Positions 2,753-31,727 of a stretch of 49,484 bases of DNA are shown one piece after another. This DNA comes from a virus. The translations under genes were made by a program, and so were the position numbers. The stretch spans positions 1 through 49,484 of the IMG/VR virus record IMGVR_UViG_3300035156_000182. One strand, written 5' to 3'. Position 1 is the first letter of the stretch. Every line of letters begins with the position of its first letter. Under the pieces are notes generated by a model that ran no database searches, had not been told where the DNA came from, and was given only the letters and a program-made list of their open reading frames with translations.

Positions 2753-3130
2753 TTAACCTTCGTTGGTGGGCGCGGCGGCCGGCTGGAGGGCGGAGATCAA
2801 GTCGGCCTTGGTTGCGTTCGGCTCGACGTTGACACCGCGTTCGACGGCCAAGTCGCGCAGCTCGGCGACCTTCATGTCGGACAGCTCGCGCTTCGCGGCG
2901 ACCAGGGCGGCGGCCTCGGCCGCGACGCGGTCGCGCGTGTCGACGATCAGGTCGTCGCCGATCAGGCCGTCGGGGTCGCTGGAGATCCCCGCGTCGACCA
3001 GCGCTTCGGCGCGCAGGCGATGGTTCAGCGGATACGCGCCGTGCATCGCGAAGCCTTGCTCGGCCAGCTCGGCGTTCCGGCCGCTGATTTCGGGCGCGGC
3101 GGCCTCGACCTTGTCGGTGGCAGTATCCAT
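2753..3130 (-). CDS. Hypothetical virion-module protein with a C-terminal SAP/HeH (Rho-N-like) motif
   Basis: 125-aa ORF with ATG 3130 and an AGGAG RBS. The C-terminus LSDMKVAELRDLAVERGVNVEPNATKADLISAL matches the helix-extended-helix pattern. Confidence 0.6.
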   Translation of the reverse strand: MDTATDKVEAAAPEISGRNAELAEQGFAMHGAYPLNHRLRAEALVDAGISSDPDGLIGDDLIVDTRDRVAAEAAALVAAKRELSDMKVAELRDLAVERGVNVEPNATKADLISALQPAAAPTNEG

Positions 3131-3197
3131 TCGATCGCGCTCCTACGTGAAGGCGCGAGAATAGCGGCGGCCCGCCATAGGCCGAAAGCCTGAACGG

Positions 3198-3641
3198 TCA
3201 GGGGCCGCGCAGGTCCCACGACGACCGCACCAGCACTTCACCCCACACCAGCCCGTCGCCTTCCTGCCGCAACGAATAACCCGCGTAGCTAAAGGCCTCG
3301 ACCGCGCCGGGCGGGGTGAACCCGACCATGTTCGCCAGCAGGGTGCCGCGCGTGATTTCCAGCGGGTCGCTTCGTTCCTCGCTGGCCAGCTCGGCCCCCA
3401 GGCAGAACAGCAGCGACACGGTCGAGCGAACCCGCTGCGCACGACCGCCAGCGCCAAGGCGGTTCGGGTCGGCTTCCTCGCGCGACAGCGACACGTAAAG
3501 CGCAGGCGGCACCGCGTTGCCATAGGTGATGGCATCGGTCGCGCTCGACCAATCCGACACCGACAGGAACCCGGCGACGCCCGGCGACACTTCGGTCGTG
3601 ATGAGGCGCGCGCGGGCGCGCACGGCTGACAAGTCGATCAT
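3198..3641 (-). CDS. Head-tail connector / tail completion protein (candidate, by position)
   Basis: 147-aa ORF with an ATGA overlap onto the upstream gene. It lies between the Mu gpG-like morphogenesis gene and the tail tube gene. No motif was recognised by eye. Confidence 0.5.
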   Translation of the reverse strand: MIDLSAVRARARLITTEVSPGVAGFLSVSDWSSATDAITYGNAVPPALYVSLSREEADPNRLGAGGRAQRVRSTVSLLFCLGAELASEERSDPLEITRGTLLANMVGFTPPGAVEAFSYAGYSLRQEGDGLVWGEVLVRSSWDLRGP

Positions 3642-6720: not shown

Positions 6721-7683
6721 TTACTTGCCGTATTTGTTCCGGCGGTCGGCGCGCACCTTGTCGAGATCGGCCACGGCGGTGTTCCCGTCCGCGCTGAACG
6801 ACGGCGACAGGGCGTCGGCCGAGCTGCCGGCGGGCGCGGCGGGGGTGACGTTGCCGCCCTTCGCCATGATGCTGGCGATGATGGCGGCCGGGGTCGCCTT
6901 CGGCAGCTTGTCGTCGCTCGCAAAGGCGATGACATCGGCATCGGCCACGGCGTTGAACGCGGCGACAAGGTTGTCGCGATCGGCCGGCAGCACCTTGGTC
7001 GCGGCGACCAGGGCGTCGACCTGCGCGGCGTTGGCCGTCTCGCGTGCGGTGCGCTGTTCAGCGGCGAAGGTCTGTTCGCGCTCGGCGGCAATGCGCTCGC
7101 GCTCGGCGATTGCGGCTTCGCGCTGCGCGATTTCGGCTTCGGTTGCCACGGTGTTGTTCTCCACTGGTGCGGCCGGTGCGGCGGCGGGGGGTTCTGAAAC
7201 GGTGATGACCGGCGTCGGCGCGGCCTCGAACACGATCGCGGGCGCCGGGTCGCCGGTGACCGACATCACGTCGTCGGCCGAGAATGCGAAGGCCTGCGCG
7301 AGCGGGGGCATTCCAGGAATGCCGACAGCCGCGCCGCCGAGGAAGCCAAGGTGCTTCGGCGCGAGCTTGCCGGGCGTCGGGTTCGACGGGTGGTTTTTCC
7401 CGAAAAACGCCATCGACCGGCCGAGGATGGTCGACCCCTTCACGCCGTCGATGATCGGCTTAAAGGCCGGCAGCGTTTCGGGCACGTCGGCGAACAGCGA
7501 ATTGCCCTCGGCACGGAACTTCACAATGGCCCCGTGCGCGGGGCTGTCGGTCGTCGGGTGGCCGATGACGTTCGGAACCGGGTGCGCAGCGCAATCGAAC
7601 GCGGCGATGTCGGCCAAGTCGGCCGCCGTGATCCCCGCTGCATTCGCAGCCGCGTTTCCCGCGCGAAAAACTTCGATTTCCAT
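6721..7683 (-). CDS. Capsid scaffolding protein, GpO-like (possible protease-scaffold)
   Basis: The real start is taken as ATG 7683 (MEIEVFRAGN..) with RBS GAAAAGGTGAC. The N-terminal half resembles P2 gpO (..GHPTTDSPAHGAIVKFRAEGNSLFADV..HLGFLGGAAVGIPGM). The C-terminal half is Ala/Glu/Arg coiled coil. The 518-aa track ORF extends further upstream into low-quality sequence. Confidence 0.6.
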   Translation of the reverse strand: MEIEVFRAGNAAANAAGITAADLADIAAFDCAAHPVPNVIGHPTTDSPAHGAIVKFRAEGNSLFADVPETLPAFKPIIDGVKGSTILGRSMAFFGKNHPSNPTPGKLAPKHLGFLGGAAVGIPGMPPLAQAFAFSADDVMSVTGDPAPAIVFEAAPTPVITVSEPPAAAPAAPVENNTVATEAEIAQREAAIAERERIAAEREQTFAAEQRTARETANAAQVDALVAATKVLPADRDNLVAAFNAVADADVIAFASDDKLPKATPAAIIASIMAKGGNVTPAAPAGSSADALSPSFSADGNTAVADLDKVRADRRNKYGK

Positions 7684-7773
7684 GTCACCTTTTCGCCCGT
7701 TTGCCCCCGCGCGCGAAAGCCTGAACGGTCGGGCTGGCGATTTATTCGGCCTCGACGAATGTTTCCTGTTGCG

Positions 7774-7793
7774 TTTGGCCAAAACTTTGGCCA
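7774..7793. repeat. Direct repeat TTTGGCCA x2 at 12-bp spacing (first copy inside palindrome TTTGGCCAAA); possible regulator site
   Basis: Read directly: tttggccaaaactttggcca. It lies in the 147-bp divergent gap between the scaffold gene (-) and the first plus-strand cassette gene. Confidence 0.4.
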
Positions 7794-7830
7794 CACCGTC
7801 ATTCGTCAACAGCGAATAGGAACTGCCGCC

Positions 7831-8049
7831 ATGTACCGCACCAACGCCGGACTCGAATTCGCTTCCTACACCGACGCTTGCATTTATCACGGGGCCGACA
7901 CCCCCGCCGACATCGCCGCCGAAATTGCATATGAACGCGAGGAAGCGCGCCGCGAATATCACGGTGAAGCGATGATCCAGGATGCACGCGCGGCCGGGCT
8001 GGTCGTCGGCTTCGAAGCGTGGCCCGACGCGCACGCCTTCCCGTTCTGA
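7831..8049 (+). CDS. Hypothetical protein (first gene of the plus-strand cassette)
   Basis: 72 aa (MYRTNAGLEFASYTDACIYHG..), with AGGAA 8 nt before the ATG. It is the 3' part of track ORF 7351..8049, whose 5' part is antisense to the scaffold gene. Confidence 0.5.
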   Translation: MYRTNAGLEFASYTDACIYHGADTPADIAAEIAYEREEARREYHGEAMIQDARAAGLVVGFEAWPDAHAFPF

Positions 8050-8094
8050 CCTGCCGGGGCTTCGGCCCCACCCTTTCCCGCTGGAGCGCCCCAC

Positions 8095-8598
8095 ATGCTG
8101 ACCATCGAACAACAAACCGCGAACCTTTCGACCGTCGTCGACAATCTGCTGCGCAACGCCCTTCCGCGTGCCGGCAGCGTTCACGCGGCTGTCGCCTATA
8201 TCGCGCACGTCGCGACGCCAGCCGTCGGCGGCGGTATTCTCGCGCTGCCCGCGCCGAGCGGCCAGCGCGCGCGGCACCGGGGCGTCGCGATCATGGTCGA
8301 CGACAGCGGCTATTTCGCCGAGGCCGGTGCCGCAACGTCATTCGGCTATGCCGACACGGTCGACGAAATCCGCGCCGAGATTGACGACCATTTCGCCGAG
8401 GAAGCCGAGCACTATCGCGACCAGGATACGCCCGCCGATACGCCGTCGCTCGACGACACGTTTGCCGAGCTGGAGCGCGCCGACGACACCCCGACGGCCT
8501 CGCGCTGCCCCCGGTGCGGCATCACGATCCTGCGCGCGTCGGGCAGCGGCCCCGACTGCGCGAGCTGCGCGCGTCGCTATCTCGGCACGAATTCTTAA
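8095..8598 (+). CDS. Hypothetical protein with an acidic region and a C-terminal CxxC..CxxC zinc ribbon
   Basis: 167 aa with GGAG 8 nt upstream. It has an acidic stretch, DEIRAEIDDHFAEEAEHYRDQDTPADTPSLDDTFAELERADD, followed by CPRCG..x12..CASC. Confidence 0.6.
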   Translation: MLTIEQQTANLSTVVDNLLRNALPRAGSVHAAVAYIAHVATPAVGGGILALPAPSGQRARHRGVAIMVDDSGYFAEAGAATSFGYADTVDEIRAEIDDHFAEEAEHYRDQDTPADTPSLDDTFAELERADDTPTASRCPRCGITILRASGSGPDCASCARRYLGTNS

Positions 8599-8640
8599 CC
8601 CTCGGCGGGCATGGTGCCCGTCGAACTGGAGCGCATCACG

Positions 8641-8826
8641 ATGACGAAAATTCACAATTGGAAGGCGAAGCGGTCGGGCGACGCGATCACGGTCACGGGC
8701 ACCGACCCCGACGGCCACCCGCTGAAGGTCGGCCGCGTGCTGTCGATTGACGGGGGCGCGACCGGCATCATCGCAAAACAGTGTAACGGCCTGCGCGCAC
8801 CGACCTTTTTCGAGCTGGTCGCATGA
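8641..8826 (+). CDS. Hypothetical protein
   Basis: 61 aa from ATG 8641 with GGAG 10 nt upstream. The track start at 8611 has no RBS. ATGA coupling to the next gene. Confidence 0.5.
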   Translation: MTKIHNWKAKRSGDAITVTGTDPDGHPLKVGRVLSIDGGATGIIAKQCNGLRAPTFFELVA

Positions 8827-9086
8827 GTCGCCTGTCCGACAGCATCCGCGAACAGGCGCGGCGGCAGGCCACTATCGCCAGCGGCCTGCGCATGGCGGGC
8901 GACCGCGACCTTGCGCAGCACGCGGCGATTGCCGGGCACTACCTGACCACGGCCGCCGACACGCTCGACGCATACGATCGCGCCGCCAAGCTCGCCGCGT
9001 CGGGGCCATTCGAAGGTTCCGACCTGAACGCGGCAGCTCGCGCGAACGGCGGCCTGACCGTGGTCAGTCTCGGCGCGCGTGCCTGA
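8823..9086 (+). CDS. Hypothetical protein
   Basis: 87-aa ORF with an ATGA overlap onto the upstream gene. Helical, Ala-rich. Confidence 0.55.
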   Translation: MSRLSDSIREQARRQATIASGLRMAGDRDLAQHAAIAGHYLTTAADTLDAYDRAAKLAASGPFEGSDLNAAARANGGLTVVSLGARA

Positions 9087-9252
9087 CTATCGTTACCGCC
9101 TGCCGTCGACCTATGGCCGCAACGTGTTTCGCTTGCTGCCCTTCGGCCCGAACATCATCGCCCGCGCCGCTCGCGCGGGCGTTGACACGACCAGCACCCC
9201 GGCCATCCGCGCGTGGCGCGCTGCCGGCGAACCCGAGGAATGGAACCCATGA
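9079..9252 (+). CDS. Small hypothetical protein (57 aa, below the ORF-track cutoff)
   Basis: My translation from GTG 9079: VPDYRYRLPSTYGRNVFRLLPFGPNIIARAARAGVDTTSTPAIRAWRAAGEPEEWNP. It overlaps both neighbours (8-nt and ATGA) and fills an otherwise 160-bp gap. Confidence 0.4.
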   Translation: MPDYRYRLPSTYGRNVFRLLPFGPNIIARAARAGVDTTSTPAIRAWRAAGEPEEWNP

Positions 9253-9557
9253 AAGAATTCACGCGCGTGTTCGTTCGCGACAGCGGCGTCGGCATTGACG
9301 TCGGTTTCACCATCACGCCGGGCACGCCCGAAACCGGCTGGAGCGGCCCCCCTGAAAATTACGATTGCGGGTCGCCTGCCGAAGTCGACGTGACTGCTGT
9401 CAACGGGTGCCGGCTGGCCGCGCGCGACCTGACCGATGCCGAGCGCGAGCGGTTCGCCGCCGAAGTGCTCGACGACGTCGGCGAATATCTCGACGACGGC
9501 CCCGACCCCGACGACGCGCGCGACCGGATGCGCGACGACCGCCTGACCGACCGATGA
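9249..9557 (+). CDS. Hypothetical acidic protein
   Basis: 102 aa from ATG 9249 (MKEFTRVF..) with a GAGGAA RBS. Acidic C-terminus DDVGEYLDDGPDPDDARDRMRDD. Confidence 0.55.
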   Translation: MKEFTRVFVRDSGVGIDVGFTITPGTPETGWSGPPENYDCGSPAEVDVTAVNGCRLAARDLTDAERERFAAEVLDDVGEYLDDGPDPDDARDRMRDDRLTDR

Positions 9558-9760
9558 AACCCGACGACGGGCACGACGCGCACCGCGTCGAGGCGCGCAA
9601 GCGGTGGGGCAACCTGACCGCCTTTCGCCTCGGCTATGTTGCCGGCGAAAACGGTCAGGTCGAGCCGAACCCCTACCTGACCGACCGGGGCCGCCGGCAG
9701 TATCTGGCCGGCGTTGCCTATGGTCGGGAACGCGCGCGAGCCGCGCGGCCCGGCGGTTGA
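9554..9760 (+). CDS. Hypothetical protein
   Basis: 68 aa (MKPDDGHDAHRVEARKRWGNLTAFRLGY..) with an ATGA overlap. In frame with the 3' part of track ORF 9365..9760. Confidence 0.5.
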   Translation: MKPDDGHDAHRVEARKRWGNLTAFRLGYVAGENGQVEPNPYLTDRGRRQYLAGVAYGRERARAARPGG

Positions 9761-9762
9761 CC

Positions 9763-9966
9763 ATGGCCGCCGCCCCTGCCCTGCGCACCCTGCGCGATTG
9801 CGGGTGCGTGCGTGCCCGCGTCGATCGCCTCGACTTCGTGTCGCTGGTCGACATCGGGCTTGCCACCGCACGCCCCGTCGCACGCGACCCCGACCTGACC
9901 GACTATCGGCTGACCGAAATCGGTTGGCGCGTATCCGAAAGGCTTGCCCCATGCGCTTCATCGTGA
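9763..9966 (+). CDS. Hypothetical protein
   Basis: 67 aa (MAAAPALRTLRDCGCVRARVDRLDFVSLVDIG..). It starts 2 nt after the upstream stop. Confidence 0.45.
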   Translation: MAAAPALRTLRDCGCVRARVDRLDFVSLVDIGLATARPVARDPDLTDYRLTEIGWRVSERLAPCASS

Positions 9967-10157
9967 CGACTCACACCGCCTTGCCGGGGGTGCGCCTGTC
10001 GCGCCCCGGCCACTTCGGCAACCTGCCGTTCGACAACGTGCCCGAGGCCGAGGCGCACGCGCGCGCGATCGCCGGCAGCGCTGACATCACGGTCGACCAG
10101 GAACACGCCCGGCCGCGCTCTTTCATCGTTGACAGGCTGGCCAACCCCGGCGCATGA
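9951..10157 (+). CDS. Hypothetical protein
   Basis: 68 aa (MRFIVTTHTALPGVRLSRPGHFGNLPF..) with GAAAGG upstream and a 16-nt overlap with the previous ORF. Confidence 0.45.
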   Translation: MRFIVTTHTALPGVRLSRPGHFGNLPFDNVPEAEAHARAIAGSADITVDQEHARPRSFIVDRLANPGA

Positions 10158-10187
10158 ATTCGGCGTCACCGAATAAGGAACACGCGC

Positions 10188-10355
10188 ATGAACGACTATC
10201 GTAACCGCCCCCCGGTCGATGAACACGCCGACAATCTCGAAGCCGCTTTCGACAGCCTGCGACGCGCCGAGGCATGGAGCTTCGCCGGGCTGGTCGTGCT
10301 GGTGGCAATCTGCGCGATCGGCATGGCCGTGGCGTTCGGGCTGGTGCGCTGGTGA
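10188..10355 (+). CDS. Small membrane protein (55 aa, below the ORF-track cutoff)
   Basis: My translation: MNDYRNRPPVDEHADNLEAAFDSLRRAEAWSFAGLVVLVAICAIGMAVAFGLVRW. AAGGAA lies 7 nt upstream and there is one C-terminal TM helix. Confidence 0.45.
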   Translation: MNDYRNRPPVDEHADNLEAAFDSLRRAEAWSFAGLVVLVAICAIGMAVAFGLVRW

Positions 10356-10594
10356 AGTGCCGCCGCGCCCTGCCGGGTAGCGTGCTCGCCGACGGGTCGG
10401 TGATTGACCATCGCGGCTTGCGGTCGCCGCACGGCCCTTGCTTCATGCCGGCCAACTATGGCGCGCGCCTGCGCCACGTTCTCGGCCGCTGCCGCGCGCT
10501 GGAGCTGGCCGGCTGGCGAATGGCACCCGTTCGCGATTGGCCGAGCATGGCACCGCGCGCCGGGCTGTTGTGCATCGTTCGGCGTCGGGCATGA
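10352..10594 (+). CDS. Hypothetical Cys-containing protein
   Basis: 80 aa from GTG 10352 (GTGA overlap with the upstream stop). In frame with track ORF 10274..10594. Confidence 0.4.
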   Translation: MKCRRALPGSVLADGSVIDHRGLRSPHGPCFMPANYGARLRHVLGRCRALELAGWRMAPVRDWPSMAPRAGLLCIVRRRA

Positions 10595-10854
10595 CTGAAA
10601 TGCTTCTGGCCGCGCGTCGGTGCGGCCAGTGCCTGACCACCCGCAACCGCATCGTGTCGGGCGCGCGAGCGGCCGAGCTGGTGCGCCATTGCCGCGAATC
10701 GGGCACCCATTTTCAATGTCACAAGGGGTCGATCGCCGACCTGAACGTGCATTGCCGGGGAGTGCATGACCTGTTCGGGTCGGGCGCGCACCGCGTCGCC
10801 GTGCGGTTCGGCATCCCCGTGCGTGAAGTCGACCCCGACCAGCTCGGCGCATGA
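10591..10854 (+). CDS. Hypothetical Cys/His-rich (zinc-binding-like) protein
   Basis: 87 aa with an ATGA overlap. Pattern: RRCGQCLTT..HCRESGTHFQCHKG..VHCRGVH. Confidence 0.55.
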   Translation: MTEMLLAARRCGQCLTTRNRIVSGARAAELVRHCRESGTHFQCHKGSIADLNVHCRGVHDLFGSGAHRVAVRFGIPVREVDPDQLGA

Positions 10855-11405
10855 AGGTCGAAATTTACACCGACGCCAGCGTGACCACGACCAAGCGCGG
10901 CGCATGGGCGACCGTCATCGTGCGCGGCGACGATCGGCACGAATCGTCGGGTGCCCTGCGCGGCGACTTCCCGTCGTCGACCGCCGTCGAGGCCGCCGCC
11001 ATGGCCAACGCGATGCACTTCGCCCGCCAGCGCGGGTTGATTGAACCCGGCGACGTCGTGACGCTGCGATCGGACAATCGGAACGCCGTCGGCCGCGTCA
11101 CCGGCCGGGCGCGCGACGCGAAGTGCCCGACGATCCGCCGCGCGATTTCCTACGTGCTCGACGAAGCCGATCGCCACGGGTTCGACCTGCGCGCGGCATG
11201 GGTGAAGGGGCACCAGCCGCTAGACAGCTTCGACCCGCACGCAATCCATAATATCCGGTGCGACCACCTTTGCCGCGCGATCCGCGACGGCCACAAGCCG
11301 GCGGGCATCAACGCCCTTGTCGAACAGGTGGCGGGCCGGCAGCGGCGACGGCGGCGGCGCGAGGCGCACGCGGCGGGTACGCGATCAGCGGCAGCGGCCG
11401 AGTGA
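10851..11405 (+). CDS. Ribonuclease H (RNase HI-like)
   Basis: 184 aa. The catalytic pattern aligns by eye to E. coli RNase HI: VEIYTDAS (D), STAVEAAAMANA (E), TLRSDN (D), WVKGH (H), IRCDHL (D). It has an Arg-rich tail, RQRRRRRRE. Confidence 0.8.
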   Translation: MKVEIYTDASVTTTKRGAWATVIVRGDDRHESSGALRGDFPSSTAVEAAAMANAMHFARQRGLIEPGDVVTLRSDNRNAVGRVTGRARDAKCPTIRRAISYVLDEADRHGFDLRAAWVKGHQPLDSFDPHAIHNIRCDHLCRAIRDGHKPAGINALVEQVAGRQRRRRRREAHAAGTRSAAAAE

Positions 11406-11620
11406 CCGACGACCTGTTCGCCGCGCCGATCGTCGGGCCGGTGGCGTCGTTCGCCTGCGAGTGCGGCGCGCGTGACGAAGTGAAGGAACCCGCGCCGCCG
11501 ACGGTCGACTGTTTCGGCTGTCGGCAGGTTCAGGGGATGAAGCGCTTTTCGCCGCGCTGGCCGCCGCCCCGCCACGCCGGGCGCACGGCCACGGCGCGCG
11601 AGCTGGCGCGGGTGGTCTAG
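11402..11620 (+). CDS. Hypothetical small zinc-ribbon-like protein
   Basis: 72 aa from GTG 11402 (GTGA overlap). Motif CECG..x17..CFGC. Its stop overlaps the stop of the convergent minus-strand gene. Confidence 0.4.
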   Translation: MTDDLFAAPIVGPVASFACECGARDEVKEPAPPTVDCFGCRQVQGMKRFSPRWPPPRHAGRTATARELARVV

Positions 11621-11862
11621 TCGAGCACCGCGACGAACGTCACCATGCCGCGCGTGGTGTCGCTCTTTGCCGCTTCGGTGACCGTGGCAGGCTTGCCGTC
11701 GACCGTGCCGGCAGCGCCGACCATGTCGCGCACCAGCGTGCCGAAAAATGCGAGCCGGATGCCGGCCGCGCCCTGCTGCGCGCCCGCGTTGCCCTTGTGA
11801 AACGGGAAGTCGACGTTGGCCAGCCAACCGTTTTCGACCGAACCTTCAACCATGCGTGCCAT
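11617..11862 (-). CDS. Hypothetical protein
   Basis: 81 aa from ATG 11862 (MARMVEGSVENGWLANVDFPFHKGN..) with an AAGGGG RBS. The track ORF starts further upstream at 11919. Confidence 0.5.
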   Translation of the reverse strand: MARMVEGSVENGWLANVDFPFHKGNAGAQQGAAGIRLAFFGTLVRDMVGAAGTVDGKPATVTEAAKSDTTRGMVTFVAVLD

Positions 11863-11922
11863 CGTGTCGCCCCTTCGAAGTGATGCCCGCCGCCATATCC
11901 CAGGCGGCGGGCTGGTCATAGG

Positions 11923-13932
11923 TCAGGGCTTGGCGATCGCGTCGAGCACCGCGCGCCGCTTCGGCGTCTCGGCGATCGGCTGGCCGGCATATTCCCGAAT
12001 TCCCCACGCGCCATATTGCGAGATTGTGCCGGTCGCCGAGTAGATGGTCAGCAGGTCGCCAATGTCGCGCCGCCATTCTGCGATGAAGCGGTCGTATGCC
12101 GCACCCATCAACGGCGACCGTTGCATCGCCTCGGCCACCGGGGCCAAGCCGCCGGGGGCGATGATATGTTGCCCGGCTTCATACGTGATGTACCGCTTGC
12201 CGAAGCGGTCGGCCGTCCGCTTGTTCGCCTTCGCGCGCGCCAACGTTTCAACGCGTTGCGCCTCCAGGCGGGTGAACAGCGCCGGCAGGTCGGCGACCGT
12301 CACCTTGTCGTTCGGCGCGTCGAAAAACGAGTGTCCGAAGTAGGGCGCGGTGGCGAACGCGTCGTGCCATTTGGCCGCGTCGCGGAACCCTAGAACCTGT
12401 TCGCCCGCCCATGGATTGTCGTTCTGCGCGGAAATGACCCGCACCAGCCGCGCGGGGTTGCTGGCAAAAACCGGGGTCAGCACCTGCATCATTTCGGTCG
12501 ACTTTTCGGCCAGCCGCAACAGGTTGTTCGTGTATTTGTCCGGCGACAGCTTCGACGCCACGCCTTCGTTCAGCGCCTGCGCTGCCACACCGAATTGGAA
12601 ATTCCACACTTCGTTGGACAGCTCAAAATAGGCGCGGTGGTTGGCCGCAAGGCGGTCGCGCACCAGCTCGCCAGCCCGGCGAACATAGTCGGCGTCGGCA
12701 TTCCACGGGATAGTGAACCACGCGTCGGTGCCGGCCGCGTTCGCAAGGTCGATCATGTTTTCGAGCGCGACGCCGTCGGTGCCCCCGGTGGTCGGGGTGG
12801 CGCGGTTCGCCCATGTCACCGACGGCGGGTTGCCGTTGGCACTCGACCAATCCAGGAAGCGCAGCAGAGCGAACGGCTTCAGGTCGTCGATCAGCCGCTT
12901 GTCGAACACGCCGACCGTCTCGAGTCCCGCTTCGCGGCAATCCAGGTTGCGGAACGGGTCGACGTCATTCGCGCCCTGAACGTAGAGCATAAGCGACGGC
13001 CTCGACGCGCCCAGCTTGGCGATGTCGAACCCGCGCCAAGTGAAGGTCACCGACCCCTTGTCGCCGAATCCGCCAGCGTCGCCATCGACGCGGATGGCTC
13101 CGGCCCCCTGCCAAGTGCACGTCACGACCGCCGGGCGGTTGCTCCATACGGCTTGCGGCACGTTGATCGGCAGCACGCCGTCGGTGCGCGGGTAGCCGAA
13201 CGCGTTCAGCTTGCCGGGCACCATGTCGCCCCACCCGGCCGACGGGTCGCGCCATGCGCTCGCCGCATAGGCAAGGTTCGCGAAGGTCCGTTCGGTGTTG
13301 TAATACACCGACCCGCCGACGTTGATCGCGATGCTGGTCGGCTTCACCCCGGCGGTCGGCGCGGGGGTGGGCGTCGGTGCCGGGGTGGGGGCGGGGGTCG
13401 GGGCTGGCGTCGGGGTGGTCGGCAGCGGGGCGGTGCGCGACCATGCGCAGGCCTTTACGACGTTCGACAGCGGGTCGCCGAACGCTTCGTTGCTACAGTC
13501 GATGCCGTCGGTCGCGAGGCGATAGGCGAACACGCCCTGCGCGCCATAGCGAACGGTCGCGGTGCCGGTGAACGAACAGCGGGCATCCTCGACCGCGCAT
13601 TCGGTCCAACCGCCGACCGCGGGTGGCGTCGGGGTGGGCGTCGGCACGGGTGCCGGGGTTGGGGTCGGCGTAGGGGCTGGTGCGGGCGCGGGCGTGGCGA
13701 TCGCCTTCAGACGTTCGCGGCGCACCTGTTCGGCGGCCGAGGCCGAACCCTTCGCCTTGCCGAAGCAATCGGCTTGCGTGGTCAGGCGCGACGGGCTGTT
13801 CAGGTCGGCTTTCGGGATGGCGGCCGTGCCGCATCCGGCGGTGGTTTGTGCGGTGGTCGGGCTGGTCAGTCCGGCGACGGCGGCAGCGGTGCCGGCGGCG
13901 GCCAGCAGGCCGAAAATGTAGCGTTGGCGCAT
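11923..13932 (-). CDS. Secreted glycoside hydrolase-like protein (Sec signal peptide, two Pro/Thr linkers, 4-Cys module, clan GH-A-like TIM-barrel domain)
   Basis: 669 aa with an AGGAG RBS. Signal peptide MRQRYIFGLLAAAGTAAAVAGLTSPTTAQ. Linkers such as PAPAPAPTPTPTPAPVPTPTPTP. Cys module WTECAVEDARCSF..VRYGAQG..IDCSNEAFGDP..KACAW. Catalytic-type motif YFELSNEVWNFQF (Asn-Glu) after RFLDWSSANG. The family cannot be assigned by eye. Confidence 0.6.
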   Translation of the reverse strand: MRQRYIFGLLAAAGTAAAVAGLTSPTTAQTTAGCGTAAIPKADLNSPSRLTTQADCFGKAKGSASAAEQVRRERLKAIATPAPAPAPTPTPTPAPVPTPTPTPPAVGGWTECAVEDARCSFTGTATVRYGAQGVFAYRLATDGIDCSNEAFGDPLSNVVKACAWSRTAPLPTTPTPAPTPAPTPAPTPTPAPTAGVKPTSIAINVGGSVYYNTERTFANLAYAASAWRDPSAGWGDMVPGKLNAFGYPRTDGVLPINVPQAVWSNRPAVVTCTWQGAGAIRVDGDAGGFGDKGSVTFTWRGFDIAKLGASRPSLMLYVQGANDVDPFRNLDCREAGLETVGVFDKRLIDDLKPFALLRFLDWSSANGNPPSVTWANRATPTTGGTDGVALENMIDLANAAGTDAWFTIPWNADADYVRRAGELVRDRLAANHRAYFELSNEVWNFQFGVAAQALNEGVASKLSPDKYTNNLLRLAEKSTEMMQVLTPVFASNPARLVRVISAQNDNPWAGEQVLGFRDAAKWHDAFATAPYFGHSFFDAPNDKVTVADLPALFTRLEAQRVETLARAKANKRTADRFGKRYITYEAGQHIIAPGGLAPVAEAMQRSPLMGAAYDRFIAEWRRDIGDLLTIYSATGTISQYGAWGIREYAGQPIAETPKRRAVLDAIAKP

Positions 13933-13944
13933 GGGTGGAAGCTC

Positions 13945-14331
13945 CTATTGGTGCTGGTATTCGAGCGTGAACGTGCGTTGTTTCACGCGCGGCGGCACGG
14001 CGTCGGTCGTGATGGTCACGACGATGCCGATTAACTTCGGGGTGTCGAACAGCGGCGACTCCTTCATCGCGTCGACAATTTCAGGCCAGAATGACACGCG
14101 ACGACCGACCAGGGTCGGCAGCGAATAGCCATTGCCGGATTTGATCGCGAAACCGAGCGCTACGGATTCGGGAAGCGGGGCCATGTTGAACGACGCCACG
14201 TTTTCGCCCGGCGCGAGGATCGGAAACGGCGCGACCCCCTGAACGCCCTGCGAAATGTCGAGGCCGAACAGGTCGACGTCGCTCGGGTCTAGCGGCTGGT
14301 CGAGCTTAAGGGCTGTCGTCGGAATGACCAT
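13945..14331 (-). CDS. Hypothetical protein
   Basis: 128 aa from ATG 14331 (MVIPTTALKLDQPLDPSDVDLFGLD..), with GAGG 9 nt upstream. It lies between the SPRY-repeat gene and the hydrolase gene. Confidence 0.55.
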   Translation of the reverse strand: MVIPTTALKLDQPLDPSDVDLFGLDISQGVQGVAPFPILAPGENVASFNMAPLPESVALGFAIKSGNGYSLPTLVGRRVSFWPEIVDAMKESPLFDTPKLIGIVVTITTDAVPPRVKQRTFTLEYQHQ

Positions 14332-14342
14332 GGTCGGCGGCC

Positions 14343-16127
14343 TCAATACAGGGTTGCGGTGCGCGCCCCGGTGTCATGCCATGTAATAGAGCGCGCGCCC
14401 GCATCGTAAAGCGTTGCGAACTTCGCGCCTTGGTCGACCAGCTCGACCGTGTTCGTGTCGGGGGCGCGCAACAGCGGCAGGGTGGGGAAGTCGGCGGCCT
14501 CCAGGATGATCGCCGTCGCGCGCACGCGGGCCAGCGCCGAGCTGGTCGCCACGTCGTCGCCCTCGGCGATCGTCGCATCGGCGAACACGCGCGGGGCGGC
14601 GGTCGATGCCATCGCATCGGCGGCCTCGGCGATCGCGCCCGTCGCGATGATCCGAACCGCGCCCGAGCTGGTCGAGCTGTCGCCGGCCTCGGCTTGCGAC
14701 AGGAAGCCGAACACGAACGCGCGGCCATCGCTCGCCGTGGTGTCGGGGGCCTCGACCAGCGGTGCGGTGCCCGTCACCCCGCCAGTGCTGGCCGATGCGA
14801 TCGCGTCGGGGGCTTCGGTCAGGGCCGCCGCGCCGGTAATGCGCAGGGCGGCGGTCGACGTCGCCGCGTCGTCGGCTTCGGCCAGGGCGGCGGCAGCGGT
14901 CGCGCGTGCGATCGCCGTGGCGGTCAGGCTGTCGGGTGCTTCGGCGGTGCTCGCGCTCGCGACGACCCGCACGCTGCCGCTCGACGTGGTCGTGTCGGCG
15001 GCCTCGACCGTGGCGGCATTGCCCGCGACGCGCAGGGTGCCTGTCGCGGTCGGGGTGTCGGCCCCTTCGAACAGGTTCGCCACCGCCCCGGCGGCCGGCG
15101 CGCTGCCCTGCGATGCCATGGTGTCGGGCAGCTCGGCCGCGACCGACGCGGCGGTGATACGCGCAACGGCGGTCGAGCTGGCGACGTCGGCCGCTTCGGT
15201 GACGGTGGCGGTGCCCTTGGCGATCGCCTTGACGGTCGCGGTGGTCGTGTCGGCACCCTCGACGACCGCGCCCGCGCCCACCACCTTGCCAGCACCAGCC
15301 GACGCCATCGTGTCGGCAGCTTCCGCGACGGTCGACAGGGCGGTCATGCGCGCCGCCCCTGTCGAGGCGATCGCATCCGCACCCTCGACTAGCGCCGCGT
15401 TCGCCGTGCGCCCGGTAGGCGTCGCGGCATCCATCGTCGAATAGCCGGTCGGCGGCGGGTATGCGTGCCCTGCCGCGCCGTGGTTGATCGTGATTGGACC
15501 GCCACCAATCGACAGGTAGGCGGCGAACGCGAAGGAAGGCGTCGGCCCGGTTCGGGGCAGAGTCCAACCGCCAGTGACGGTGAGAGGATTGCCGTACCAC
15601 GGCCCGGCATTGACAGCGACGAAGCACATGCCGGTGGCGACGTCGATCGCCAGCCGGATGATGTCGTTCGCGGCCCAAGTGGGGCCGAACGTGTCGTAGC
15701 CGCTGGAGTCGTCGCCTAGCGCGCCGTTCGGATATGAACCGAACCCGTTGTTCGATTGGCCGAGGTAACCGGGGTTCAGCGGCGACTCTAGCTGGTTGAC
15801 CACGCCGACCGCGATTTGCGTGCCGCCCCCCGTGCTCACCCGCATTTCGGCGTACCACTTGCCCGTGGATTTGAACGGCGAAACGGCGACCGCGTAGCTG
15901 CCGCCGGTGCCGACGAACGTCAGCGTGCGGTTCTGATTTGACAGCGCGAACGGCGGTTGCGCGGTCAGCGCCGGGTCGAACCCGACCGGCGTCGAAACCG
16001 CACCGGAAACGACCCCGGTCGATGCTACGCCGTCGGGGCCTTCGACAAGGTTCGCGATGTTGGTCGCTGCCGTGCCGAGCGGGTTGCCGGCGACGGGTCC
16101 GAATGCGACCGGACCCCGGCCGGGCAT
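14343..16127 (-). CDS. SPRY-domain protein with about 15 tandem 21-aa xE[AG]xD repeats (fibre-like structural protein candidate)
   Basis: 594 aa. The SPRY pattern spans aa ~55-225 (STGKWYAEMRV..IAVGVV..NDIIRLAIDVATGMCFVAVNAGPW). Periodic repeats then run from aa ~244-560, with one more copy (LVEGPDGVASTG) before the SPRY domain. Confidence 0.7.
   Translation of the reverse strand: MPGRGPVAFGPVAGNPLGTAATNIANLVEGPDGVASTGVVSGAVSTPVGFDPALTAQPPFALSNQNRTLTFVGTGGSYAVAVSPFKSTGKWYAEMRVSTGGGTQIAVGVVNQLESPLNPGYLGQSNNGFGSYPNGALGDDSSGYDTFGPTWAANDIIRLAIDVATGMCFVAVNAGPWYGNPLTVTGGWTLPRTGPTPSFAFAAYLSIGGGPITINHGAAGHAYPPPTGYSTMDAATPTGRTANAALVEGADAIASTGAARMTALSTVAEAADTMASAGAGKVVGAGAVVEGADTTTATVKAIAKGTATVTEAADVASSTAVARITAASVAAELPDTMASQGSAPAAGAVANLFEGADTPTATGTLRVAGNAATVEAADTTTSSGSVRVVASASTAEAPDSLTATAIARATAAAALAEADDAATSTAALRITGAAALTEAPDAIASASTGGVTGTAPLVEAPDTTASDGRAFVFGFLSQAEAGDSSTSSGAVRIIATGAIAEAADAMASTAAPRVFADATIAEGDDVATSSALARVRATAIILEAADFPTLPLLRAPDTNTVELVDQGAKFATLYDAGARSITWHDTGARTATLY
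14448..15398 (-). repeat. Degenerate 63-bp (21-codon) tandem repeat array inside the SPRY-protein gene
   Basis: Protein units: VEGADAIASTGAARMTALST / AEAADTMASAGAGKVVGAGAV / VEGADTTTATVKAIAKGTAT / TEAADVASSTAVARITAASV / ... / AEGDDVATSSALARVRATAII. The Glu-x-x-Asp register recurs every 21 aa. Confidence 0.7.
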
Positions 16128-16130
16128 GGT

Positions 16131-16877
16131 CTAGCGGACCCGCTGAACGGCGAACGCCGCCGAGTTGATCGGCCCGAAGCTGCCGCCGTTGTCGTAATAA
16201 ACGAACGCGCGAAGCTGCTGCCCGGCGGTCAGCGGCATAAGGCGGCTGTTATACGACCCGCTGCGGTTCGGTGCGGTGACTGACCACTGAAAGCCGGGCG
16301 AATCGGCGTTGACGATGTCGATACCCAGCCCGTGACTGATTCCCGCCCCCGGCCCGCCGCCCTGTGGATCGGCGACGCGAACCTTAAGCTGGCAGTCATA
16401 GAGGCCGGTCTGCTGCACCGTATATTCGTTGCGGTTGACCTTGTTCCATCCGCCGTGCGTGTCGGTAGTTGCGGGCCAAGCATTGCCGCCGTTGTTGTTG
16501 TCCCAAGCGACAGTCAGGAAGGCGTTGTTGGTGTTGTAGAACGGGTTGGCGTCGGGGTTGTTGCGCTCGACCACGAGCACCGGCCAATCCGCTACATGCG
16601 CCTTCGCGAGATAGGCGACCGACACCGTGGCCGACGTCGTGACGTTCAACAGCGCGCCGGTCGAGCTGGCGGCCAGCCCCCGGCTAAGGGTGCCCCCGGC
16701 GGTGTAGTTGCCGGTGCCCGTTTCCCATGCGTTGCCGTCGATGATGAGATATTCGACCGCCGTCACGCCGGTTGTCCACACGCTGTTGAACGTGCGGTAA
16801 CCCGGCAGGGCCGCGCCGAGCGTCAGCGCTCCGGTGCCGCCCCCGGCGACGGCCTGCATGACGCGGTCAGCGATCAT
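16131..16877 (-). CDS. Tail-fibre-like protein (possible C1q/TNF-like jelly-roll tip)
   Basis: 248 aa from ATG 16877 (MIADRVMQAVAGGGTGALTLG..) with an ATGA overlap onto the upstream gene. The C-terminus YTVQQTGLYDCQLKVRV...RLMPLTAGQQLRAFVYYDNG is reminiscent of C1q-type receptor-binding tips. This is a weak, by-eye call. Confidence 0.5.
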   Translation of the reverse strand: MIADRVMQAVAGGGTGALTLGAALPGYRTFNSVWTTGVTAVEYLIIDGNAWETGTGNYTAGGTLSRGLAASSTGALLNVTTSATVSVAYLAKAHVADWPVLVVERNNPDANPFYNTNNAFLTVAWDNNNGGNAWPATTDTHGGWNKVNRNEYTVQQTGLYDCQLKVRVADPQGGGPGAGISHGLGIDIVNADSPGFQWSVTAPNRSGSYNSRLMPLTAGQQLRAFVYYDNGGSFGPINSAAFAVQRVR

Positions 16878-17158
16878 TCGTCGATGCCTTGTGAAAGGTC
16901 GGTCAGCCGATTCCACTGGTCAATGGAGGGCCGCCAGCCGTCGAGGTTCAGCCGCATTTCAAACAGCGACAGGGCGGCGGCATCGGGGGCCGACAGGGTG
17001 AATTCCCGCGCCTCGGCGATCATACGCACGGCCTCGGCCCGGTTCAGCGGTTCGGACAGGTCGACCCCGTTGGCCGCGCCGCGCAGCGCATCCATGTCGG
17101 CCGGACGCGGCGCACCCGGCGGGCGCGGGCGCATCGGCTTTCGGGGGGCGATCGCCAC
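16874..17158 (-). CDS. Hypothetical protein
   Basis: 94-aa ORF with a GTG start at 17158, 4 nt after the upstream stop. Coupled to the fibre-like gene. Confidence 0.5.
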   Translation of the reverse strand: MAIAPRKPMRPRPPGAPRPADMDALRGAANGVDLSEPLNRAEAVRMIAEAREFTLSAPDAAALSLFEMRLNLDGWRPSIDQWNRLTDLSQGIDE

Positions 17159-17162
17159 GGGC

Positions 17163-17570
17163 TTACGCGTTCGCAGCGGTGATGCTGAACGTCGAAATGA
17201 GAATGTTCTGACCTGCCGCCGCGTTGGTGTTGTCGAGCGTCATGTCACCGCCGCCGCCGGTGGCCGTGACGGTGCCCTGCATATGACAGGTCGTGCCGTC
17301 GCTGGCGTAGATGCGGAAATGGCCGACGACGCCGGCCGCGTCCGCGCTGGTGTCCTCCCAGGTTCCCGACTTCGCCTTCGATCCGGCGGCAGCGGCGGCC
17401 ATCCAATCGGCGGGCAGCGCGATGGTCGCGACCACGGTTCCGGTGTCGGCCGCTGCGCAGCTCGCCGGGGCCGCGCCGGTGCGGAGCTTCAGAACCGCCG
17501 ACACGCCGATCGCGACTTCGATGGCATCTAGGCGAGCGTTACGAACGGCGACGGATTGCTGAAGTGCCAT
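17163..17570 (-). CDS. Hypothetical protein (first gene of the fibre-like module)
   Basis: 135 aa with ATG 17570 and an AGGGA RBS. Preceded by a 126-bp non-coding gap. Confidence 0.55.
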   Translation of the reverse strand: MALQQSVAVRNARLDAIEVAIGVSAVLKLRTGAAPASCAAADTGTVVATIALPADWMAAAAAGSKAKSGTWEDTSADAAGVVGHFRIYASDGTTCHMQGTVTATGGGGDMTLDNTNAAAGQNILISTFSITAANA

Positions 17571-17696
17571 TGTCGGGGGTTCCCTGTTTCGTGCTGACCG
17601 CCGACCAATAGCGAAAGCGGCGCGCGCAATCCATCGCGTTGACGATCGCGGGGCCGGCCGTGCTAAAGGGCGGCGGGGGCGACGGCTGGAGTTGGC

Positions 17697-19060: not shown

Positions 19061-19120
19061 CATGAGGCGGGCGACCTGAATTCGAATTCGTTATGCGCGA
19101 ACGCGTCCGGCGTCAAGCGA

Positions 19121-19327: not shown

Positions 19328-19362
19328 TTTCGGTGCTCCCTTTTATTCGGTGGCAGCGAATA

Positions 19363-31695: not shown

Positions 31696-31727
31696 CGGTT
31701 CTATTCGGCCAATGCGAAAGAATTGGC

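Follow-up and report, generated by a model that had tools for sequence, protein, structure and literature searches.

A cassette of 14 small plus-strand genes between the head operons of a 49-kb phage genome

Background

In Mu-like phages of Pseudomonas, a slot in the head module carries an anti-CRISPR operon of mix-and-match composition with its own conserved promoter region (PMC3993853). The region is listed as RGP G (PMC4378225). The phage genome described here resembles these phages in having a cassette of small genes in their anti-CRISPR slot. The window analysed, 49,484 nucleotides in length, is a complete 49-kb phage genome.

Location and organization of the cassette

The cassette (7831-11620) consists of 14 plus-strand genes of 55-184 aa and is flanked on both sides by minus-strand head genes. 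It separates the terminase-portal-Mu F operon from the protease-capsid-tail operon. To the left, the protease/scaffold gene (minus strand) starts at 7683, and to the right, a minus-strand gene (11617-11862) has a stop codon that overlaps that of the last cassette gene, c14, within CTAG. The same convergent end-to-end overlap was found in two related contigs, L002 and L003. An earlier note on this DNA had described 14 plus-strand ORFs that interrupt the minus-strand genes, and both this observation and the flanks were confirmed. The genes are listed below.

c1, 7831-8049, plus strand: 72 aa, acidic (pI 4.5); only in this genome
c2, 8095-8598, plus strand: 167 aa; helical N-terminal part, central domain, C-terminal zinc ribbon
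c3, 8611-8826, plus strand: 71 aa; backbone gene
c4, 8823-9086, plus strand: 87 aa
c5, 9079-9252, plus strand: 57 aa; GTG start
c6, 9249-9557, plus strand: 102 aa, strongly acidic (pI 4.2); only in this genome
c7, 9554-9760, plus strand: 68 aa, basic; only in this genome
c8, 9763-9966, plus strand: 67 aa
c9, 9951-10157, plus strand: 68 aa; backbone gene, closes the first unit
c10, 10188-10355, plus strand: 55 aa; acidic N-terminal part, single hydrophobic transmembrane-like span; backbone gene
c11, 10352-10594, plus strand: 80 aa, very basic (pI 11.6), four Cys, GTG start; only in this genome
c12, 10591-10854, plus strand: 87 aa; CxxC..C..CH..HC, widespread phage family
c13, 10851-11405, plus strand: 184 aa; RNase HI with a basic, Arg-rich C-terminal tail; backbone gene
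c14, 11402-11620, plus strand: 72 aa; CxC..CxxC zinc ribbon (C19, C21, C37, C40); final gene, backbone

Coding status of the ORFs

Adjacent genes overlap at 9 of the 13 junctions (by 4 nt in seven cases, by 8 nt in one and by 16 nt in another), the number given in the earlier note as an argument for real genes. Start-stop overlaps are also found at 25 of the 58 same-strand junctions elsewhere in the genome, and the cassette is not special in this respect (Fisher p = 0.13). It stands out by the size of its genes (median 72 aa versus 134 aa, p = 1.4e-4).

That the ORFs are real genes is shown by codon-position GC, dN/dS and independent gene calls. A sliding frame plot gave the pattern GC3 > GC1 > GC2, indicative of plus-strand coding, across nearly the whole block, and GC3 of the individual ORFs is 0.73-0.90. 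The exception is c1, which is ambiguous (GC1 > GC3 over about 7890-8100) but has a whole-ORF GC3 of 0.73 versus a GC2 of 0.49 and was called independently with identical boundaries. The seven ORFs with homologues in relatives have dN/dS values of 0.17-0.84, below 1 in each case, and homologues of c2, c8 and c12 occur elsewhere. Of 10 ORFs that were looked up, eight had been called with identical boundaries by the JGI, Logan or ENA pipelines; the exact ORF was absent from the protein collection for the two with a GTG start, c5 and c11. As DNA of 68 % GC contains long ORFs in all six frames, and as neither c1 nor c11 has homologues, chance open frames in a non-coding region, or one coding on the other strand, were considered, but the evidence above makes this explanation extremely improbable. 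The least supported ORF is c11, with no homologue among the relatives or the profile families, though the frame plot favours plus-strand coding here too.

Products of the cassette genes

No match in Pfam, PHROGs or NCBIfam was found for 12 of the 14 ORFs. RNase HI (c13) is the only product with an assignable function. The RNase H reported earlier is borne out by matches to PF00075 (31.9 bits, cut-off 25.8) and phrog_531 (1.2e-15). The invariant residues D8, D75, D138 and H121 line up with D10, D70, D134 and H124 of the Escherichia coli enzyme. E47 is kept in four phage sequences, a few columns off E. coli E48, to which we infer it to be equivalent; on this alignment, the catalytic residues appear intact. 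Homologues of c13 are present in L002 (74 % identity), L003 (54 %), L013 (52 %) and L026 (40 %).

At least three Cys4 zinc ribbons had been proposed, and two of the three named, in c2 (C138, C141, C155 and C158, in the arrangement CxxC..CxxC) and c14, were upheld. The third protein, c12, is predicted to bind metal via conserved Cys and His residues that do not form a classical ribbon. These residues are invariant in 76 homologues that share 58-77 % identity. The c12 family corresponds to phrog_5443 (function unknown) and one homologue is annotated DUF6283. The c12 model (pLDDT 91.8) had no fold match in the PDB, and its two viral matches are both uncharacterised. The central domain of c2 (residues ~59-129; four strands and a helix, pLDDT 94-97 in the model) belongs to a rare family of ~70-aa acidic proteins, with 25 representatives among 1.8 billion proteins and the motif FGYCDT..EIDDH..EE.EHY.DIDTP.DTPSLD. 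It also occurs within the first cassette gene of L026, and the c2 model had no fold match in the PDB. The structure check on these two confident models was thus uninformative.

Acidic proteins and a single-TM peptide had also been pointed out, and these are present: c1, c2, c6 and c10 are acidic overall (pI 4.2-5.0) and c10 has the one hydrophobic span. Neither c1 nor c6 matched a family in Pfam, PHROGs or NCBIfam; c1 has no homologue in the relatives and c6 none in phages. For c7, there were no homologues among 5.8 billion proteins. A short motif in c7 resembles ribosome modulation factor (44 % over 32 aa of E. coli RMF, E = 4e-4), where the E value is that of a single pairwise comparison, and database searches did not support this likeness. 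The c8 product is possibly a winged-helix protein, as suggested by a weak, below cut-off Pfam match to an EarA-like family (E = 0.087), and has a homologue (45 % identity) in the L026 cassette.

Comparison with related phages

A counter-oriented cassette is found at the equivalent place in five other phage contigs (L001/L002, L003, L013, L023 and L026). The location had been called unusual but, as six genomes share it, this is wrong for the lineage. In more distant capsid relatives, there is no cassette and the terminase, portal, Mu F, protease and capsid genes are all on one strand.

In the comparison with relatives that the earlier note had suggested, the block is variable and its flanks are conserved. 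The closest relative has a capsid protein that is 90 % identical, a decoration protein that is 82 % identical and a protease that is 68 % identical, but homologues of only 7 of the 14 cassette ORFs, and the next relative has 5-6. The backbone, namely c3, c9, c10, the RNase HI gene and c14, retains its order in the close relatives. Homologues of c3 (43-54 % identity, dN/dS 0.54-0.63), c9 (52-61 %, dN/dS 0.35-0.62; a very small family) and c10 (37-43 %) were found in L002, L003 and L013, those of c3 at the equivalent relative position, and homologues of c14 (52-66 %) in L002 and L003. Of the remaining genes, c4 has a homologue in L002 (63 % identity, dN/dS 0.33) and a weak one in L003, and c5 has one in L002 (82 %, dN/dS 0.18). 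The variable slots are the 5' end, the interval between c5 and c9, and the positions around c10 and the RNase H gene; their contents differ from genome to genome. In L001, a gene with a PAPS-reductase domain replaces c1-c2. Two of the exchanged genes turn up again in unrelated phages, in early operons or in arrays of small genes. At least one slot gene, c12, recurs at the ends of early recombination operons in unrelated phages: its homologues in L027 and L028 are the last genes of such operons, and those in Vibrio and Microbacterium phages lie amid small non-structural genes. The cassette is an accessory plasticity region, and it was not the case that all of its ORFs are conserved in order with structural or replication roles assigned.

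The backbone could instead point to a helper module for replication and recombination that is core to the lineage, centres on RNase HI and was displaced from the early region; its small proteins would be accessory factors of DNA metabolism with no part in host takeover. The conserved gene order, the presence of RNase HI with an apparently intact active site in four of the five other cassettes, the PAPS-reductase-domain gene of L001 (this domain is often linked to DNA modification), and the position of c12 homologues after exonuclease, ERF and SSB genes in other phages are in keeping with this. However, even the closest relative keeps only half of the genes, RNase H was not detectable in the L023 cassette, more distant relatives with the same head module lack the cassette, and separate replication and recombination operons are already present at 23.9-37.3 kb. 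We therefore regard this explanation as rather unlikely.

Candidate control elements

The elements identified upstream of c1 and c10 are as follows.

Divergent control region, 7684-7830: from the protease/scaffold gene (minus strand) to c1 (plus strand)
17-mer GACCGTTCAGGCTTTCG, 7714-7730, minus strand: conserved, upstream of the protease gene
Palindrome O1 ATTCGGCCTCGACGAAT, 7744-7760: operator-like site
TTGCGTT, 7769-7775, plus strand: -35-like, 25 nt upstream of O2; candidate promoter element for c1-c9
Palindrome O2 ATTCGTCAACAGCGAAT, 7801-7817: directly 5' of the c1 ribosome-binding site (CGAATAGGAAC..ATG)
TTGACAG, 10129-10135, plus strand: -35-like, 22 nt upstream of O3; candidate promoter element for c10-c14
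Palindrome O3 ATTCGGCGTCACCGAAT, 10158-10174: in the 30-nt c9-c10 gap, directly 5' of the c10 ribosome-binding site

The divergent control region has a GC content of 58 % versus 68 % for the genome. It contains two palindromes, the TTGCGTT element, a TTTGGCCA direct repeat and the late 17-mer, and portions of it are conserved in 3-4 relatives. The 17-mer, a candidate late promoter or regulatory element, has a core that is invariant in four relatives. A second copy (3183-3199, minus strand) lies upstream of the gene at 2753-3130, and both copies are kept in L002 and L003. This conserved 17-mer gives the protease operon an upstream element of its own, which means that the late region is already divided into separate units.

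Equivalents of O1 were found in L002 and, with one mismatch, in L013, and sites at the position of O3, which follow the c9 homologue or precede that of c10, in L002, L003 and L013 (one mismatch). The TTGCGTT heptamer recurs with identical spacing in L002. The -35-like element of the second unit lies within the 3' end of c9. In L002, and twice in L003, TTGAC(A/G)G lies ahead of the corresponding palindrome with identical spacing. A simple sigma-70 scan detected neither a promoter nor a terminator for the cassette; TTGCGTT did not match the consensus and the -10 regions match poorly.

The palindrome, ATTCG-N7-CGAAT, occurs at nine sites genome-wide versus 2.4 expected, a number reached in 0 of 100 shuffles. 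Eight of the nine sites are intergenic, though intergenic DNA makes up 4.2 % of the genome (P = 8e-11). It also marks the early divergent control region, where a Cro/YdaS-like, carph-isopro HTH gene adjoins the sites. One site (19345-19361) lies ahead of a small gene that separates portal from Mu F, and hence the palindrome is not exclusive to early regions.

These elements suggest two transcription units, c1-c9 and c10-c14, each with its own -35-like element and with an operator that covers the transcript start. One phage regulator may serve both units and the early genes. With a regulator in common with the early genes, the cassette would be expressed early and shut off later; judged from the cis-elements only, its expression appears early and repressor-controlled. 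As c14 meets the convergent late gene stop to stop with no terminator between them, late transcripts probably extend into the cassette as antisense RNA, which would probably help to silence it. Within each unit, the start-stop overlaps would allow coupled translation.

Orientation opposite to the late genes and apparently separate promoters are also features of moron-type blocks, expressed from a prophage for lysogenic conversion or superinfection exclusion to the benefit of the host. The c10 membrane peptide would be an example of such a product, and one c12 homologue is in a bacterial chromosome. However, neither an integrase nor a CI-type repressor was recognised in the complete genome, the scan found no terminator, and the operator-like palindromes that cover the putative starts point to repression and not to constitutive prophage expression. 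Furthermore, the close relatives are found only as ~50-kb viral or metagenome contigs, and the genome collection yielded only a distant relative (43 % capsid identity). A moron-type block is thus improbable.

Is the cassette an anti-defence island?

The earlier note had proposed a host-takeover or anti-defence island. Tightly packed, variable, non-structural genes in an anti-CRISPR slot agree with this, but no ORF matched a known anti-defence or host-takeover family in Pfam, PHROGs or NCBIfam. On this reading, the cassette would be a dedicated island, a 14-gene functional equivalent of the Mu-like acr-aca operon. As soon as the DNA has entered, most products would block host immunity. RNase HI may be among them, with RNA:DNA hybrids from reverse-transcriptase-based defences as its substrate. 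The shared Mu-type slot, with its mix-and-match content and conserved promoter region (PMC3993853), favours this, and the promoter palindromes recall Aca operators (PMC9410906, PMC8633003). Also in its favour are the small size of the genes, their acidic or zinc-binding products, and the fast evolution of c3, c9 and c10 (dN/dS about 0.5-0.7, from 0.35 for c9). In L028, the c12 homologue is followed by a weak match to the restriction-alleviation protein Lar; in a Sphingomonas chromosome, one is near a GmrSD_N gene; and an Acb1 anti-CBASS domain is already present on the portal of this phage. Against it, none of the ORFs matched a known Acr or other anti-defence family (Pfam including Acb1, PHROGs, NCBIfam), no aca-like HTH gene was detected, the operator is common to other control regions and not private to the cassette, and a five-gene backbone conserved across relatives is atypical of arms-race cargo. 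Overall, a dedicated island is possible but doubtful.

The best explanation, which we consider likely, is that the cassette is a mosaic of accessory, non-structural, early-type genes at a plasticity hot spot of the Mu-type head module. RNase HI may act when phage DNA is replicated or recombined, by stripping the RNA from RNA:DNA hybrids, and the five-gene backbone that includes it looks more like a lineage-core function than arms-race cargo. By analogy, the small acidic, zinc-binding and membrane proteins may target the nucleic-acid and defence machinery of host or phage. As the site corresponds to the anti-CRISPR locus of the Mu-like Pseudomonas phages, an anti-defence role for the cassette is plausible.

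Reading frames and setting of the cassette

Open frames are found on all six frames of the window, which has a GC content of 68 %, and genes were therefore chosen by codon-position GC, using a sliding frame plot over positions 7500-11900. In the plus-strand frames of the 14 proposed ORFs, numbered c1 to c14, the third codon position has the highest GC and the second the lowest, and the frame shifts at the ORF boundaries; the single ambiguous part of the plot is the c1 stretch (approximately 7890-8100). The ORFs extend from 7831-8049 to 11402-11620, encode 55-184 aa, have GC3 values of 0.73-0.90 and overlap at nine of the 13 junctions (by 4 nt at seven, 8 nt at one and 16 nt at one). For the seven that have homologues in relatives, dN/dS is 0.17-0.84. 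When 10 ORFs were looked up among the calls of the JGI, Logan or ENA pipelines, eight had identical boundaries, and the exact ORFs of the other two, c5 and c11 (both with GTG starts), were absent. On the flanks, the protease/scaffold gene starts at 7683 (minus strand) and the neighbouring minus-strand gene ends at 11617. The frame plot, GC3, overlaps, dN/dS, pipeline calls and flanks thus confirm the earlier note, which had described 14 counter-oriented small ORFs that split the structural genes. Start-stop overlap, which it had taken as a sign of real, co-translated genes, does not distinguish the cassette from the rest of the genome, where 25 of 58 same-strand junctions have such overlaps (p = 0.13), and this trait was dropped. 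Small size does set the cassette genes apart (median 72 aa versus 134 aa, p = 1.4e-4).

Individually discussed ORFs of the cassette
7831-8049, plus strand, c1
8095-8598, plus strand, c2
9554-9760, plus strand, c7
9951-10157, plus strand, c9
10188-10355, plus strand, c10
10591-10854, plus strand, c12
10851-11405, plus strand, c13 (RNase HI)
11402-11620, plus strand, c14

Because bases 1-127 of the window are identical to bases 49358-49484, the genome is complete and circularly closed, at 49,357 bp. One gene of tape-measure size (~1,212 aa) results when the ORFs at 1-981 and 46700-49483 are joined in frame across the junction. The order on the minus strand is small and large terminase, portal (Portal_Mu with a C-terminal Acb1), two small genes, a Mu F-like gene, a fibre-like gene, genes of 594, 128 and 669 aa and an 81-aa gene, followed by the plus-strand cassette and then by protease/scaffold, a decoration-like protein, the major head protein, tail genes and lysis genes. 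The replication and recombination genes (replication protein, RusA, methyltransferase, exonuclease VIII-like protein and AAA_24 protein) form two divergent early operons around 31.6-31.7 kb, and the first leftward early gene encodes a Cro/YdaS-like, carph-isopro HTH protein. No integrase was recognised in the genome.

Relatives and variation in gene content

A blastn search with positions 7000-12500 against 50,697 phage records returned only a trivial 76-nt match, and there was no DNA-level similarity to any cultured phage in these records. Searches of the same records by tblastn with c2, c6 and c14 found no match, and a capsid query of the genome collection found only one distant relative (43 %). 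Relatives were recovered via protease and capsid searches and by look-ups of c12 homologues, and five other contigs have a counter-oriented cassette of small genes beside the protease gene.

Contigs with a counter-oriented small-gene cassette beside the protease gene (percentages: capsid or protease identity)
L001/L002 (closest relative): IMG/VR, 51 kb; capsid 90 %; cassette of ~11 genes
L003 (= L014; close relative): IMG/VR, 49.8 kb; capsid 81 %; cassette of ~16 genes, 7.4 kb
L013 (close relative): metagenome, partial; capsid 83 %; cassette extends past the contig end
L023: Logan, 50 kb; capsid 46 %; cassette of 10 genes
L026 (more distant): ENA, 48 kb; protease 45 %; cassette of 12 genes, directly between Mu F and protease

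No such cassette was found in capsid relatives at 41-44 % identity, prophage-derived contigs included, in which the terminase, portal, Mu F, protease and capsid genes all lie on one strand. Among the close relatives, c3, c9, c10, the RNase H gene and c14 are kept in order, and c14 was not seen in the truncated cassette of L013. As c4 and c5 are also present in L001, seven of the 14 ORFs are common to the window and its closest relative, and c1, c2, c6, c7, c8, c11 and c12 have no counterpart there. The first cassette gene of L001, in the c1-c2 slot, is instead a 247-aa PAPS-reductase-domain gene (L002 7644-8387, minus strand; PF01507, 2.7e-12). Around c10 and the RNase H gene, unrelated small ORFs occupy slots that differ between genomes, and L026 has homologues of the c2 domain, c8, RNase H and c12 in a changed order. 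The pattern is one of plasticity around a conserved backbone. The earlier note had proposed a comparison with related phages to look for a variable block between conserved flanks, and the relatives do show this. The cassette does not look like a transposon or integrative element: no flanking repeats were found at its boundaries, just short GC-rich chance repeats, and there is no recombinase among the 14 ORFs.

The segment from Mu F to the cassette (11617-17860) is itself variable between relatives. Amid this 'structural' run, a 669-aa protein (11923-13932, minus strand) has a signal-peptide-like N-terminus and Pro/Thr-rich linkers; it has a counterpart of 54 % identity in L001 and none in L003, and it matches no family. 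The portal (19598-21742, minus strand; Portal_Mu, 1.3e-71) includes an Acb1 anti-CBASS domain at residues 476-619 (PF23474, E = 3.2e-28, 98.7 bits versus a cut-off of 27). The same Portal_Mu and Acb1 architecture is on record for the portals of L023 and L026, and a literature search found no description of a portal-Acb1 fusion. An anti-CBASS nuclease borne by the virion or fused to the portal would be notable.

Palindromes and putative transcription units

Two perfect copies of the palindrome ATTCG-N7-CGAAT are found in the 147-nt gap that separates c1 from the protease gene, a relatively AT-rich stretch, and the gap of 30 nt between c9 and c10 is filled by a third. Genome-wide, there are five perfect copies and four with one mismatch, compared to 2.4 expected, and none of 100 shuffles reached nine. 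Intergenic DNA makes up just 4.2 % of the genome, yet eight of the nine copies are located in it (P = 8e-11).

Positions of palindromes
7744-7760, at the cassette
7801-7817, at the cassette
10158-10174, at the cassette
19086-19102, between portal and Mu F
19345-19361, between portal and Mu F
31670-31686, early divergent control region
31703-31719, early divergent control region
38070-38086, second small divergent region

The palindrome immediately precedes the ribosome-binding site of four genes: c1, c10, the gene at 19121-19327 and the first of the rightward early genes. L002 and L003 have kept the sites that follow c9, precede c10 and adjoin the protease gene; in L013 these are present with one mismatch. 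In the window, L002 and L003 (twice), the sequence TTGAC(A/G)G precedes the internal palindrome by 22 nt, and TTGCGTT is upstream of the c1-proximal palindrome in the window and L002. The palindromes are probably the operator of a phage regulator. Scanning 7400-12100 for sigma-70 promoters and for terminators revealed neither a promoter nor a relevant terminator. From the placement of the palindromes, their conservation and the -35-like elements, we infer that the cassette may be made up of two promoter-operator units, c1-c9 and c10-c14, which would be under the same regulator as the early genes.

The second small divergent intergenic region (37984-38122) separates a GGAGG-ATG start at 37983 from the plus-strand gene at 38123-38524 (phrog_20494) and has a perfect palindrome at its centre; the alternative gene model 37585-38382 (minus strand) is probably wrong.

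Upstream of the protease gene is the 17-mer GACCGTTCAGGCTTTCG (7714-7730, minus strand), which is repeated upstream of the gene at 2753-3130 (3183-3199, minus strand), where it precedes a downstream head-tail gene. Both copies are kept in relatives (L002 8489 and 12991; L003 8416 and 14350), and the 17-mer may act as a late promoter or as a regulatory RNA element. As the protease operon has its own conserved 17-mer, the late genes form separate units in any case. At the other end of the cassette, the c14 stop codon overlaps that of the convergent late gene, an arrangement kept in L002 and L003, and late read-through would run antisense to the cassette.

A classical moron of lambdoid phages, in the concept of Hendrix and Juhala (cited in PMC4378225), consists of a single gene among late genes, flanked by a promoter and a factor-independent terminator of its own, and its expression is usually from the prophage. 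The cassette, likewise, is extra DNA among conserved late genes that has apparently autonomous transcription signals and is missing from some relatives. However, it comprises 14 genes, no terminator-like site was found at its end, where c14 overlaps the convergent stop codon, and its operator-like sites suggest repression, with no evidence of lysogeny found. Because of the many genes and the missing terminator, it is not a classical moron.

Products of the cassette genes

By sequence, the product of c13 is an RNase HI (PF00075, 31.9 bits versus a cut-off of 25.8, E = 1.8e-7; phrog_531 'Rnase H', 1.2e-15), which would be predicted to cut the RNA strand in RNA:DNA hybrids. Residues D8, D75, D138 and H121 are invariant in four phage sequences and align with D10, D70, D134 and H124, respectively, of what we take to be the E. 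coli RNase HI sequence, whose catalytic set is Asp-Glu-Asp-Asp plus this His. E47, also kept in the four phage sequences, is a few columns off E. coli E48, to which we infer it would be equivalent. While the above-threshold Pfam score and the residues aligned with D10, D70, D134 and H124 are those of the family, c13 is just 26 % identical to E. coli RNase HI and has an additional Arg-rich C-terminal tail. Its score against the NCBIfam RNase HI equivalog was 16 bits, with 160 required, and no PDB sequence matched at E ≤ 0.01.

The c12 family is well conserved and includes 76 homologues at 58-77 % identity, with an invariant CxxC..C..CH..HC pattern. The c12 model (pLDDT 91.8) has no PDB fold match at E ≤ 0.001 and just two structural matches, both to uncharacterised viral proteins. 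In two unrelated phage contigs, c12 homologues close early recombination operons at the 3' end, and one of them is followed by a weak Lar restriction-alleviation match. Homologues also lie amid small non-structural genes of Vibrio and Microbacterium phages. The one in the Vibrio phage, 45 % identical, is annotated as 'DUF6283 family protein', but c12 itself has no DUF6283 match in Pfam at E ≤ 1. In the chromosome of Sphingomonas sp. 3-13AW (L025, 8110-10285), a c12 homologue (66 % identity) lies among hypothetical genes, with a GmrSD_N-domain gene two genes upstream of it; this region may be a prophage or a defence island.

The c2 protein has three parts, and its central four-strand-plus-helix domain (pLDDT 94-97 in the model) belongs to a rare family, represented 25 times among 1.8 billion proteins, whose members are acidic, ~70 aa long and marked by a DTPxDTPSLD motif toward the C-terminal end. 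The c2 model has no PDB fold match at E ≤ 0.001. A weak resemblance of the domain to PUR repeats was dropped as not significant (probability 0.10), and c1 is not supported as a paralogue of it (E = 0.48).

Residues 23-53 of c7 are like the core of the E. coli ribosome modulation factor (GY.AG..G....PY....R..L.G), with 44 % identity over 32 aa in a single local match (pairwise E 4e-4). As this match is a pairwise local one and none to Rmf was found in Pfam, NCBIfam or PDB, membership of c7 in the RMF family was rejected. Homologue searches with c7 and c9 found essentially none. No significant PDB sequence match was obtained with c2, c7, c12, c13, c14, P0083 or the family profiles of c2 and c12, and the ORFs other than c2, c12 and c13 belong to no family in Pfam, PHROGs or NCBIfam.

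In content, the cassette resembles the nin region of lambdoid phages and the early 'hyperplastic' arrays (RGP C, PMC4378225), in which ORFs of <100 codons are likewise packed and often overlapping, dispensable-looking, and unique or found in some relatives only. In other phages, c12 homologues follow recombination genes in such arrays. However, nin-type arrays are inside early operons, whereas the cassette is reversed between two late morphogenesis operons. A role that is predominantly that of a replication helper appears unlikely.

Comparison with the acr-aca region

The first anti-CRISPR genes came to light in Mu-type head modules, in the slot that separates the Mu F side from the protease/scaffold gene. 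The cassette abuts protease/scaffold (phrog_976), with Mu F (PF04233, below the cut-off) and Portal_Mu on its other side. The reference region, acr-aca of the P. aeruginosa phages JBD30, D3112 and DMS3, is likewise just upstream of protease/scaffold in a Mu-type head module (PMC3993853). In these Mu-like Pseudomonas phages it is flanked by the Mu G homologue and the protease/scaffold gene, with a conserved promoter-like sequence 5', an HTH gene 3' and genes that are 'mixed and matched' across relatives (PMC3993853). The site is also known as plasticity region G or RGP G (PMC4378225), and Aca proteins repress acr promoters via inverted repeats (PMC9410906, PMC8633003).

Both regions contain small, mostly family-less genes, in varied combinations at one fixed site in related phages. 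The conserved promoter-like 5' sequence of acr-aca may have its parallel in the promoter-proximal palindromes and -35-like elements of the cassette, and the inverted repeats that serve repression there (PMC9410906) in the palindromes near the putative starts. However, acr-aca comprises 1-4 genes, whereas the cassette has 14, on the opposite strand to the late genes and apparently in two units. The HTH aca gene is usually at the 3' end, whereas the 3' gene of the cassette, c14, encodes a Cys4 zinc ribbon; in searches of Pfam and NCBIfam, none of the 14 ORFs matched an HTH family, and c8 has a sub-threshold wHTH hint only (E = 0.087). The cassette also differs in that its palindrome is common to the early control region and occurs genome-wide, in that it holds an RNase HI and a conserved backbone, and in that, in this genome, extra co-oriented genes (11617-17860) separate it from Mu F.

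The host-takeover or anti-defence island proposed in the earlier note is a reasonable candidate reading of the cargo. Searches of Pfam, PHROGs and NCBIfam found no known anti-defence family in the cassette, and no homologue of an Acr or other anti-defence protein among its ORFs. That its role is predominantly anti-defence is, at best, a tentative possibility. We think it quite improbable that the cassette is an operator-controlled immediate-early anti-defence 'super-locus' with several undescribed inhibitor families (the c2 acidic domain with its DTPxDTPSLD tail, the Cys/His metal-binding c12 family and the backbone genes c3, c9, c10 and c14) plus a repurposed RNase HI, which would destroy the RNA:DNA hybrid intermediates of reverse-transcriptase-based immunity. 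What we consider likely is that the cassette is accessory, probably early-expressed and operator-controlled, and is located at a plasticity hot spot of the Mu-type head module.

Significance for the lineage

The 68 % GC content and the c12 homologue in a Sphingomonas genome suggest that these are probably Sphingomonas-type alphaproteobacterial phages. In this lineage, the slot has grown to a reverse-oriented cassette of 3.8-7.4 kb with two putatively regulated units and exchangeable slots. The common palindrome is a concrete candidate for a regulatory link between the accessory cassette and the phage's early switch. If the cargo is housekeeping around RNase HI, this would be ordinary phage mosaicism. 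If it is anti-defence or host-takeover, the cassette would provide a position-based handle for new inhibitor families outside Pseudomonas, and the candidate inhibitors would include the zinc protein c12, whose confident model matches no PDB fold, and the rare acidic domain of c2. The super-locus, if true, would together with the portal Acb1 mean that this lineage concentrates a counter-defence arsenal in its head-gene module.
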